A stretch of 64,000 nt of DNA from Alphaproteobacteria bacterium (GTDB lineage: Bacteria > Pseudomonadota > Alphaproteobacteria > Bin95), in NCBI GenBank assembly GCA_965215305.1, contig OZ244041.1, positions 1,257,689 through 1,321,688 on the forward strand, given 5' to 3'. The position numbers and the translations under genes were made by a program. Shown here in pieces: positions 32,484-33,956 of this stretch; the first letter of the stretch is position 1; every line of letters begins with the position of its first letter. The notes below the pieces were generated by a model. The model saw only the letters and a list, made by a program, of their open reading frames with translations, did not search any database and had not been told where the DNA came from.

Positions 32484-33956
32484 ATGAAGCTGCCCATCGT
32501 CCTGCAAGCCGCGTTCATCGCCTGTCTCCTGCTGCTTTACGGCTGCGGCGGCGGCGGAAGCGCCGGCCGCACGCAAGCGACGGGCGGGCCATCCGGGCCG
32601 CAAACGCCTTCCGCGTCATCCGAAGCCAGCCTGTATGACCGCAGCCGGGCGACCGTTCCCTACGGCATCGGCACGGATGCGGAGAGCCTCGCCGGCAACC
32701 CGCCGGCGAACACGGACCGGGCCGGGCGATTCCTCTTCATCGGCACCCCGGACATCAATCAGGCCGCGCGTCGTTTCGAACAGAACTTTCGTGCTCTGCA
32801 TGATGATGTGGATGTCGGGCATCTGCAGCTTCGGGGTGGCGTGAGCGCGCGCGGGTTGCAACACTACCTTCGGGCGGATGCCGCCGACCAGGGCGGATAT
32901 CTGCGCCGCTGGGGCGATACGCCGCCGACCGTCCGCATGCTGGAGGGTTCTACCGGGTCGGATACGGCCGACACGCTGATGGCCGTCCGCCTCATCAACA
33001 GCGCCCTGCCGCCGAACTGGCAATTGCGATTCGACAACCGGCTGGCGGCGCCGGCCGACGAGCTGAATCCCGGCTTCATCGACGTCGCATTCACCGCCAG
33101 GGAAAACTGGCCGGGAGGCGGTTGCGGCGGCAATGCCGATGCGGTTGGTTGCGCTGTCTCGCAATATACCGGCAGCGGCCGGGTCACCGCTGCCGCAGCG
33201 CTGGTGGACCCGGTTCGGGTAACGGGCGAGCGGCAGCGCATTTATGTGCTGCTCCATGAGATTCTGCACGCTCTCGGGCGCGGCCATGTCAGCCCGGAAG
33301 CGTTCCCGGAGACCATCATGCACGAGAGCGGCGATCTCGGCGTGTCGGACTGGCGGATCCTCTCCCCGCTCGACGAGGCGGCTCTCTATGCGGTCCATGC
33401 CCGCCTTCGGCCTGGAACGCCGGGAGACCTGGGGATCGAGGATTTCGGCCCCTGGAGCAACTTGTCCACGCATGCTTTCGGCCGTTTGGGCGCCGTGCCG
33501 GGGAGCGGACCGTCCGTTGTGTTCGGCGCCGTCTGGCAGAACGGGCTGGTGCGGCCCTATGCGACGGGGCGCGATCCGTCGCCGCCTCTGGAGCGGCGGC
33601 TGTCCGGCAGCGCCGGTTGGGAGGGCCGCGCGATCGGCCTGACCCCTGAGGCCGAGACGGTGGCGGGCGCGGTGGCCATGGTCGTGCAGCTCGCCTCGCT
33701 GCATGGCGAGATCGACTTCACCGGCCTGGAGGCATGGCCGCCCCATGCGGGCCCGGGCGCGCTCGGCACCGGCGCGCAGTGGGGCGACGGCGACCTGCAT
33801 TACGGCATTGCCTTGTCCGGAGGACGGGTCTTTGTCGAAACAGGCGGCGACGAAGGCGAGATCACCGGCGCGTTCTTCGGCAGCAACCAGCAGAGAATGG
33901 GCGGCACGCTCCGCCGCCGCGACCTCTCCGCTGGCTTCGCTGGCGATCGCCGATAG
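32484..33956 (+). CDS. lipoprotein with metzincin-type zinc-metalloprotease motif (HEILHALGRGH) and TbpB/fHbp-like C-terminal beta-barrel
   Basis: Signal peptide with lipobox LLLYGC followed by a Gly-rich linker. Exact HExxHxxGxxH motif. The C-terminus (...GEITGAFFGSNQQRMGGTL) matches the terminal strand pattern of Lipoprotein_5/TbpB-type barrels. Confidence 0.65.
   Translation: MKLPIVLQAAFIACLLLLYGCGGGGSAGRTQATGGPSGPQTPSASSEASLYDRSRATVPYGIGTDAESLAGNPPANTDRAGRFLFIGTPDINQAARRFEQNFRALHDDVDVGHLQLRGGVSARGLQHYLRADAADQGGYLRRWGDTPPTVRMLEGSTGSDTADTLMAVRLINSALPPNWQLRFDNRLAAPADELNPGFIDVAFTARENWPGGGCGGNADAVGCAVSQYTGSGRVTAAAALVDPVRVTGERQRIYVLLHEILHALGRGHVSPEAFPETIMHESGDLGVSDWRILSPLDEAALYAVHARLRPGTPGDLGIEDFGPWSNLSTHAFGRLGAVPGSGPSVVFGAVWQNGLVRPYATGRDPSPPLERRLSGSAGWEGRAIGLTPEAETVAGAVAMVVQLASLHGEIDFTGLEAWPPHAGPGALGTGAQWGDGDLHYGIALSGGRVFVETGGDEGEITGAFFGSNQQRMGGTLRRRDLSAGFAGDRR

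Follow-up and report, generated by a model that had tools for sequence, protein, structure and literature searches.

A lipoprotein family of sponge-associated bacteria joining a metzincin fold to a handle-barrel of the type 11 secretion cargo type

Introduction

The 64,000-nucleotide stretch of DNA analysed here (the window; assembly GCA_965215305.1, contig OZ244041.1, positions 1,257,689 to 1,321,688) comes from an Alphaproteobacteria bacterium and includes an open reading frame (ORF) on the + strand, at 32484..33956, for a 490-aa lipoprotein precursor that carries a zinc-protease motif in its middle and a glycine- and aromatic-rich pattern at its C-terminus. The locus raises the question of whether a protein so composed is an enzyme and, if it is, where it would act and upon what. 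An earlier note, made from the sequence alone, had proposed a surface-lipoprotein zinc protease, an interpretation that fold models and conservation support. The protein belongs to an unnamed metzincin family fused to a module of the type found in cargo that the type 11 secretion system (T11SS) exports, so that two known types of part are newly combined, and, beyond what the earlier note envisaged, the family is large, horizontally mobile and carried in sponge microbiomes. On balance, the evidence favors a surface-displayed zinc endopeptidase on a surface-lipoprotein scaffold, probably exported by the T11SS.

Architecture of the precursor and extent of the family

A full-length AlphaFold2 model of the precursor (mean predicted local distance difference test, pLDDT, of 85.9; predicted template-modelling score of 0.84) shows disorder at residues 20-57 only, and a metzincin domain and a handle-barrel are very probably combined on the one lipoprotein. 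The N-terminus, MKLPIVLQAAFIACLLLLYG followed by CGGGGSAGR, is a lipoprotein signal with the lipobox LLYG directly before the cysteine. The coding region is laid out as follows (MMP, matrix metalloproteinase):

32484..32543, + strand: signal peptide (residues 1-20) with the lipobox L-Y-G at its end; read from the sequence, with L18 invariant in a 39-sequence alignment and a helix at 5-18 in the model
32544..32546, + strand: TGC codon of Cys21, at which lipidation is predicted and the mature protein begins; invariant in 39 of 39 sequences, the lipobox being kept across phyla
32547..32654, + strand: Gly/Pro/Ser-rich disordered tether, residues 22-57; pLDDT <50 over 20-57, and homologues differ in length and sequence
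32655..32840, + strand: N-terminal segment of residues 58-119; H106, D118 and G119 are near-invariant in the alignment; pLDDT 87-94 in the full-length model
32841..33461, + strand: metzincin-fold catalytic domain, residues ~120-326; top 45 Foldseek matches in the PDB, and weak profile matches over the active site (adamalysin, fragilysin, MMP-14)
33255..33287, + strand: zinc/catalytic motif HEILHALGRGH, residues 258-268; H258, E259, H262, G265, R266 and H268 all invariant
33318..33320, + strand: Met279, within the putative Met-turn ETIMHES; no variation at this position in the N-domain alignment
33462..33608, + strand: beta handle or pedestal, residues 327-375, with strands at 327-335, 345-352 and 355-363 (DSSP of the model); aligned by Foldseek over 170-200 columns with hemophilin, TbpB and NHBA
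33609..33953, + strand: eight-stranded C-terminal beta-barrel, residues 376-490, ending in ITGAFFGSNQQRMGGTLRRRDLSAGFAGDRR; strands between 376 and 489, and Foldseek matches

The signal peptide with lipobox and GGGGSAGR linker to which the earlier note had drawn attention is borne out by the invariant Cys21 and by a lipobox in 185 of the 217 full-length family members, where it is retained across all carrier lineages examined. The segment ahead of the catalytic domain (residues 58-117/119) falls to a pLDDT below 50 once the C-domain is omitted; since residues 58-117 are modelled with confidence solely when the C-domain is present, this segment probably packs onto the handle, and it may be a pro-segment.

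A word-indexed search returned at least 233 homologues, all of them annotated as 'hypothetical' and lacking precomputed Pfam domains, with identities spanning 35-99% and a family norm of ~40%. The 99% match (P0001) is encoded on a syntenic contig, L002, from a near-identical strain. In an exhaustive HMMER search, a profile of the N-domain matched the representatives of 776 or more clusters, defined at 50% identity, with E <=1e-3, and 505 of these have E <=1e-10. Both the N- and the C-domain are present in 234 of 267 retrieved sequences, those with the N-domain only being mostly short fragments. The family is invisible to standard annotation because it has no Pfam or NCBIfam model. Long spurious ORFs arise readily in GC-rich DNA, as an antisense ORF of 487 aa at this very locus illustrates, and the silence of curated hidden Markov models would also suit a fortuitous HExxH match in such an ORF; this explanation is refuted, to the point of being practically negligible, by hundreds of homologues conserved across the whole of both domains, by the confident models and by a coding-type GC content at third codon positions (0.80, slightly under the 0.86-0.92 of the neighboring genes).

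Genomes often hold two or three paralogues, and a tandem triple is found in L009 (9362-14951). Among the largest members, P0214 (1992 aa), P0223 (1595 aa) and P0123 and P0163 (~920 aa) have at least two metzincin modules and up to five handle-barrels, an arrangement that recalls bilobed TbpB.

The catalytic domain

Modelled separately, residues 58-326 reach a pLDDT of 79, and the order of their secondary structure elements (twisted sheet, active-site helix, lower subdomain with C-terminal helix) fits the metzincin fold. All of the top 45 Foldseek matches of this model in the PDB were metzincins, among them MMP-10/3/12/1/13, karilysin, astacin, myroilysin, snapalysin, fragilysin and archaemetzincin (E from 3e-5, probability 1.00, target-normalised template-modelling score 0.6-0.65), so that the fold prediction to which the earlier note had tied its reading came out in its favor. 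The HEILHALGRGH motif recognized there is likewise conserved; in the 39-member alignment (35-63% identity) H258, E259, H262, G265, R266, H268 and D297 are, with Cys21, invariant, and in the wider set of 267 members HExxHxLGRxH is found in 204 and the broader metzincin motif HExxHxxGxxH/D in 215. The suggested Met-turn stands at the level of conservation only, M279 being near-invariant among the 39 sequences and fully invariant in the N-domain alignment, with a [TS][ILV]M methionine 11 residues past the third histidine in 176 sequences.

Sequence profiles point in the same direction at lower strength. When the N-domain profile was compared with PDB sequences, the only sub-threshold matches lying over the active site were metzincins (leucurolysin-A, a fragilysin-like protease and MMP-14, the last with an E of only ~2), the remainder consisting of repeat-protein, antibody and receptor noise; the alignment with leucurolysin-A, an adamalysin, covers a strand, the active-site helix and the Met-turn. 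A search of the PDB with the single protein sequence gave a low-complexity artefact only. The full protein has no match to Peptidase_M10 (PF00413) in Pfam at E values up to 10, and the sole peptidase family touched, Peptidase_M66 (PF10462), scored 11.4 bits where 20.6 are required (E 0.16), over the HExxH region alone. With the curated models silent, the fold assignment rests on structure and conservation.

The best structural matches of the N-domain are MMP catalytic domains (M10A) and karilysin of Tannerella forsythia (4in9), with E values of 3e-5 to 1e-4. MMPs and the window domain have in common HExxHxxGxxH, with the Glu of catalysis, and a short stretch leading to the Met-turn (putative in the window protein), of 11 residues here and ~8 in MMPs. 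The window protein nevertheless differs from MMPs in its low identity in structural alignments (16-22%), in the absence of a PRCGxPD cysteine-switch motif, in having Val rather than Ser after the third histidine and an invariant Arg in HExxHxLG-R-xH, in its lipid anchor, and in an accessory domain that is a TbpB-type handle-barrel instead of a hemopexin domain. By sequence it is not a matrixin, given the lack of an M10 match and of the cysteine switch, the Val and the motif Arg. Astacin (M12A), snapalysin (M7), myroilysin, fragilysin (M10C) and archaemetzincin (M54) have the fold and the extended zinc motif in common with it, at scores under those of the MMPs, and none of these families is fused to a TbpB-like barrel. 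The position after the third histidine also sets the family apart from astacins and adamalysins, which have Glu and Asp there, respectively; family members mostly carry Val (135, including the window protein) or Pro (44), with Ala in a further 25. The resemblance to StcE (M66) and SslE (M60-like), lipoprotein or surface-associated zinc metalloproteases that cut host glycoproteins, is one of functional analogy only: these have different folds around the motif, are exported by type II secretion and lack a C-terminal eight-stranded barrel.

The strict conservation of the general-base Glu, the three His, the Gly and the Met is the signature of purifying selection on catalysis, and, judging from the models, the window protein is probably an active protease. 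A protein of this fold could instead have degenerated into a non-catalytic binder that holds a metal or a host ligand, as would befit a group of secreted proteins (the known T11SS cargo) made up mostly of metal, haem and host-protein binders; a znuA-type metal ABC transporter 5 kb upstream and a diverged, Slam-adjacent subgroup with an altered motif and Leu for the Met-turn Met are in line with such a role. It is nonetheless improbable, as the window protein and 204 relatives retain the catalytic residues and Met-turn Met, and the family loci show no link to a TonB-dependent receptor or to uptake genes.

The diverged subgroup just mentioned is encoded directly downstream of Slam genes in L028 (2167-3747, - strand) and L052 (13127-14668, - strand) and has a zinc motif one residue longer (HEILHAWGLGAH, i.e., HExxHxxGxxxH). 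A longer motif of the form HExxHxLGFxxH recurs among many distant family members.

The C-terminal handle-barrel

In the model, DSSP assigns three strands to the handle (327-363) and, after them, exactly eight to the barrel (376-489), as the earlier note had anticipated for the C-terminus, and all 50 top PDB matches of the C-domain in Foldseek are the NHBA C-domain, hemophilin/HphA, TbpB, LbpB or fHbp. The glycine/aromatic pattern from which that prediction started is made up of nine positions that are invariant in the 39 sequences (G458, G462, F464, G466, G474, R478, D480, A483 and F485). At the profile level the matches are sub-threshold; a C-domain profile met only NHBA, LbpB and TbpB, on the G-x-F-[FY]-G...G-G strands. 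Pfam TbpB_B_D (PF01298) is weakly touched by 8 of 16 relatives (best E 0.0018) and gave no match for the window C-domain, for which NCBIfam slam_lipo (NF041636) remains below threshold (residues 444-489, E 0.004, 17.5 bits against a cutoff of 80). The search with curated models that the earlier note had recommended for both domains thus yielded nothing at threshold.

TbpB, LbpB, fHbp, NHBA (GNA2132) and HphA likewise possess a lipobox, a disordered Gly-rich tether and a C-terminal handle plus eight-stranded barrel. The window protein departs from these T11SS cargo in that its effector domain has an enzyme fold and in that most family loci, including that in the window, have no adjacent Slam gene. 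The latest catalogue of T11SS cargo comprises ~ten known or predicted architectures, whose effectors are binding domains or beta-handles, extra barrels, helical repeats or disordered regions, with no peptidase among them, so that the architecture is as unusual as the earlier note had supposed. Literature searches returned no protease cargo of the T11SS or Slam and no metzincin joined to a TbpB-like lipoprotein, and the family is probably the first enzymatic type of cargo on the Slam/T11SS scaffold.

Carriers and horizontal spread

A scan of one genome per GTDB species detected 77 loci, every one of them in an uncultured metagenome-assembled genome (MAG). Most carriers are Alphaproteobacteria (Rhodospirillales, Paracoccaceae, Micropepsaceae and Defluviicoccus), and the others belong to the Gammaproteobacteria, Nitrospirales, Binatia, Entotheonella/Tectimicrobiota, Thermodesulfobacteriota/Syntrophobacterales and Chloroflexi/Dehalococcoidia, several of these copies lying on Mb-scale chromosomes. 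Carriers whose origin can be traced come from marine sponges and represent ~eight phyla; Entotheonella is itself a sponge symbiont. The bin prefixes APA_ and SB06xx_ denote MAGs of Aplysina aerophoba and Ircinia ramosa symbionts (dataset of Robbins et al.). Many further assemblies bear UUID names and probably represent bins of symbionts as well.

Identities between phyla greatly exceed the family norm of ~40%. The copies on one gammaproteobacterial and one alphaproteobacterial chromosome are 82% identical, a copy on a Binatia chromosome is 72% identical to one on an alphaproteobacterial contig, and copies in bins labelled Nitrospirales, Tectimicrobiota and Pseudomonadales are 88-94% identical, some of the last being on small contigs that are possibly mis-binned. 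One family copy lies inside an integrase/AlpA/Toprim island. Together with the paralogues and tandem copies, the cross-phylum identities and the island copy constitute the signature of a niche-adaptive, horizontally mobile gene, and the family appears to be restricted to marine-sponge microbiomes and to have been exchanged between ~eight phyla.

Two loci on the Dehalococcoidia contig CBDHFB010000011.1, L076 and L079, have ORFs of just 205 aa with neither lipobox nor zinc motif, and tblastn matches there nonetheless span residues 90-489 and 292-489. These copies may be pseudogenes or the product of assembly frameshifts; if they are pseudogenes, the family is perhaps non-functional in monoderm-type hosts.

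Association with Slam and proposed route to the cell surface

The neighborhoods of the family were compared by all-against-all clustering of the ORFs of 82 loci, and none of the clusters amounted to a widely conserved gene, no partner being present at more than 13 of the 82. The recurrent neighbors (SDR, Exo_endo_phos, amidase, SBP_bac_5, thioesterase and transposase genes) were rejected as partners, since they reflect the ordinary synteny of one subclade. Slam genes formed a cluster of only four in this analysis and came to light through a screen for outer-membrane-barrel hallmarks. The Slam of L030, 4.6 kb from the family gene, matches PF04575 SlipAM (74 bits against a cutoff of 22) and TPR_Slam, and when used as a query it identified further Slams in L069, L028 and L052 and a partial one at the edge of L029. 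In L069 the cargo gene and Slam directly adjoin one another in that order on the same strand, and the cargo, 46% identical to the window protein, carries HEIMHILGRGH and TIM, while in L028 and L052 Slam precedes the family copy on the same strand with a 233-nt gap. The Slams are ~45% identical between lineages, which makes the cargo-Slam associations three independent ones (L069, L028/L052 and L030). Slam is thus found at at least 5 of the 82 loci (binomial P ~4e-4, on an assumed background of ~1.5 Slam genes per 4,000 genes), and export of the family by the T11SS within the Alphaproteobacteria is well supported. The search for a Slam-type translocator proposed in the earlier note accordingly had a divided outcome, with genuine Slams beside homologues in three lineages and none in the 64-kb window.

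Slams of the L030 type have at least 1,810 matches, the named ones being from sponge-symbiont Boseongicola and Rhodospirillales MAGs. In a reciprocal test, the neighbors of four Slam homologues were other lipoprotein cargo and included no metzincins. The cargo beside these four Slams ends in ...GAFGAHKE or ...GGFGVNKK, which the family ending ...AGFGGxR resembles. Lipoproteins of 603-867 aa without a Pfam family are encoded directly upstream of Slams in L082 (4594-6477), L083 (5266-7869) and L085 (6060-7871), on contigs inferred to be sponge-metagenomic, and look like further uncharacterised types of T11SS cargo. The L085 cargo-Slam pair lies beside a TrwC relaxase, integrases and a transposase, indicating a mobile element.

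By the proposed route, the precursor would be exported by Sec, lipidated at Cys21 by Lgt and cleaved by LspA (signal peptidase II), as the invariant lipobox suggests, and Lol transport would take it to the outer membrane, residue +2 being Gly and not Asp. There, the handle and eight-stranded barrel would be recognised by a Slam/type 11 outer-membrane protein and moved to the cell surface, a step proposed because the C-domain resembles TbpB, NHBA, hemophilin and fHbp in fold and because Slams adjoin homologues. The metzincin domain would then be held at the surface on its flexible tether of ~35 residues, with zinc presumably bound by H258, H262 and H268, E259 as the general base and M279 in the Met-turn.

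Several observations weigh against this reading. The window has no Slam, ~77 of the 82 family loci have none within 10 kb, and no other neighboring gene is conserved around the family. Assemblies at chromosome scale from Nitrospirales, Binatia, Entotheonella and Thermodesulfobacteriota carry copies, as do Chloroflexi bins; the T11SS has been described only in Proteobacteria, and dependence on Slam can therefore not be general unless an unrecognised equivalent exists in these phyla. No Pfam or NCBIfam model reaches threshold for either domain of the window protein, and the sponge-only distribution is based on the names of MAGs and datasets and not on a habitat-controlled survey.

The neighborhood and distribution data among these would be expected of an outer-membrane lipoprotein protease that is sorted by Lol, never flipped, and faces the periplasm, in which the handle-barrel serves as a binding or structural module like the hemopexin domain of MMPs; the handle and barrel loops of known cargo also bind ligands. 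Such an orientation is rather unlikely, however, in view of the same-strand adjacent Slams in three independent lineages, far above the rough background. The structural neighbors of the C-domain are all surface-exposed or secreted T11SS cargo, and lipoproteins displayed at the surface typically have, as here, a long disordered stretch behind their lipid anchor. Known cargo such as fHbp and NHBA is in addition normally encoded by orphan genes at a distance from Slam. For the window protein itself, the comparison with its relatives leaves T11SS-dependent surface display about evenly poised.

The tether also bears on whether the enzyme would stay attached. Its 35 unstructured residues could permit release of the catalytic domain into the sponge mesohyl by (self-)cleavage, giving a soluble enzyme, and there is precedent in the T11SS cargo Pls, which is released from the surface, and in the hemophilins, which are soluble T11SS cargo; some family members, moreover, have no recognisable lipobox. 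The invariance of the lipobox Cys in the aligned set and its retention across phyla instead argue for selection on membrane anchoring, and no conserved cleavage site is evident in the sequence-variable tether, so that shedding has only a slim likelihood, below that of a periplasmic orientation.

A conserved leader RNA in a subset of the family

Upstream footprinting revealed that the AT-rich patch and palindrome ahead of the window gene are not conserved, and that many homologues have instead a conserved GC-rich element. This element corresponds to a leader RNA of ~115 nt, with three inner helices, an outer helix and the loops GAAUASAAMAGCC and GGCGAAYAGG, that stops 60-75 nt short of start codons. 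A covariance model derived from six copies places it directly 5' of family genes in L004 (9845-9922), L006 (9717-9795), L007 (9759-9838), L009 (13181-13260) and L012 (9784-9858), 5' of a small ORF plus family gene in L003 (9289-9368) and L005 (661-738), and 5' of other lipoprotein or secreted-protein genes in L027 (16573-16648, - strand), L030 (14970-15045, - strand) and L070 (2061-2140). The gene behind the L030 copy encodes a bona fide TbpB_B_D lipoprotein. The window is devoid of the element, with nothing above 12 bits.

A scan of metagenomes with a pattern that fixes only the loop sequences recovered 76 stretches with 74 model copies (L086-L161), a few stretches holding two and six matches from soil datasets none. 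These copies are concentrated in metagenomes of the sponges A. aerophoba, Petrosia and Sarcotragus and in a few JGI datasets, and the genes that follow them encode mostly lipoproteins or secreted proteins, including six more metzincin-barrel proteins, and GT25-like glycosyltransferases. The leader stands ahead of at least 13 metzincin-barrel genes. In L127 (10965-13278) two leader-plus-gene units stand in tandem.

Covariation supports the structure. Across 50 distinct leader sequences, the paired cells amount to 94.8% and compensatory changes are seen at 9 of the 16 pairs, values that 0 of 500 shuffles reach and that compare with 31-57% in slid controls, with the caveat that the alignment was fitted to the model. 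The outer helix joins the 5' tail to a segment lying 20-29 nt downstream; it is fully paired (8/8) in 77% of copies versus 7% of shuffled ones and has compensatory variants. No Rfam family matches the leader at threshold; the sole similarity, which at 28 bits stays under the gathering score of 53, is to RF02221 (sRNA-Xcc1), a mobile, integron-borne element found upstream of symE. The leader could be a riboswitch-like or protein-binding 5' untranslated region, or it may act as folded single-stranded DNA in an attC-like role.

The small ORF between leader and metzincin gene in L003 (9444-9989) and L005 (807-1358) encodes a secreted protein of ~181 aa, the copies being 71-74% identical and without a Pfam family. 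As a general partner of the family it was rejected, being present at these two loci only; it could be a lineage-specific partner, inhibitor or chaperone.

Possible substrates and significance

The likeliest substrates, speculative as they are, would be extracellular or cell-surface proteins of the host in the mesohyl, or else peptides serving as food, because the family appears confined to sponge microbiomes and has been exchanged between phyla. That the substrate lies in the host matrix is a tentative suggestion and on present evidence rather doubtful. Were it correct, the enzyme might serve in matrix remodelling, in feeding on collagen- or spongin-type proteins or in escape from phagocytosis. 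A survey of sponge-symbiont MAGs identified no collagenase genes (Robbins et al.), and the unannotated MMP-like family described here is present in MAGs bearing the bin names of that dataset, so that it would fill a gap left by such surveys and provide, as an MMP-like surface enzyme, a concrete candidate for interaction with the host matrix.

The T11SS cargo known so far are binders (of transferrin, lactoferrin, haem, factor H or heparin) and adhesins, and a conserved protease would widen the role of the system. Restriction to sponges and movement across ~eight phyla are typical of symbiosis-adaptive genes, such as those for eukaryote-like repeat proteins, and the leader RNA would point to a signal by which the surface proteins of sponge symbionts are regulated in common. 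The full combination, i.e., a first enzymatic T11SS cargo that is a mobile, sponge-specific, MMP-like protease cleaving host matrix or surface proteins, with leader-RNA control in a subset of members, is speculative and less likely than not.

Upstream region and genomic context

Upstream of the window gene lies the following region:

31938..32483, no strand assigned: intergenic region of 546 nt with an AT-rich patch (~32290-32365), a palindrome and a hairpin

The gap with its AT-rich patch is as the earlier note had described it, apart from a length of 546 nt; the 'shared motif copy B' reported in the same place dissolved into GC-rich chance matches in k-mer and repeat searches. The perfect palindrome ATGATG-N7-CATCAT (32346-32364), which can be lengthened to AATGAT-N9-ATCATT, falls within the gap's sole AT-rich patch, ~120 nt 5' of the start codon. 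It occurs once in the window, is kept only in the near-identical strain L002 and may be an operator or promoter element. A Zur/Fur-type operator was considered at this site and found unsupported, since the palindrome has no second copy in the window and the regions ahead of homologous genes do not share it. The gap showed neither a sigma-70 consensus nor a match to any Rfam family at gathering threshold. A terminator-like bidirectional hairpin at 32207-32265 (TCTTTTTTCG...CGAAAAAGA, with short GC stems flanking), ~270 nt past the stop codon of the upstream gene, probably insulates the lipoprotein gene from upstream transcription.

The flanking genes are those of an ordinary alphaproteobacterial chromosome, with an MFS transporter gene (30231-31937, + strand) on one side and dut/coaBC/ubiB/ubiE on the opposite strand. 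Some 5 kb upstream of the lipoprotein gene, at 23421-27812 on the - strand, is a gene cluster for a metal ABC transporter of the ZnuA/ZnuB/ZnuC type (ZnuA Pfam E 2.5e-51). An 11-mer common to the znuA promoter region (27840) and the patch upstream of the lipoprotein gene was discarded as too short, and it looks like a chance match.

Between ubiE and mutM is a low-GC insert (38075-40150; 0.52 versus ~0.69) that is absent from L002, where ubiE abuts mutM. Its main ORF (38075-39685, + strand) encodes an AAA_15/AAA_21 ATPase for which the best PADLOC models are PD-T4-4_A, PDC-M47A, NsnB and AriA, and the small ORFs flanking it match no family; the insert is probably a strain-specific anti-phage defence islet. 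A tyrosine-recombinase/phage-integrase-like gene (61991-63184, - strand) is located near the right end of the window, and a single tRNA gene (21035-21108, + strand) adjoins the groES/groEL region.

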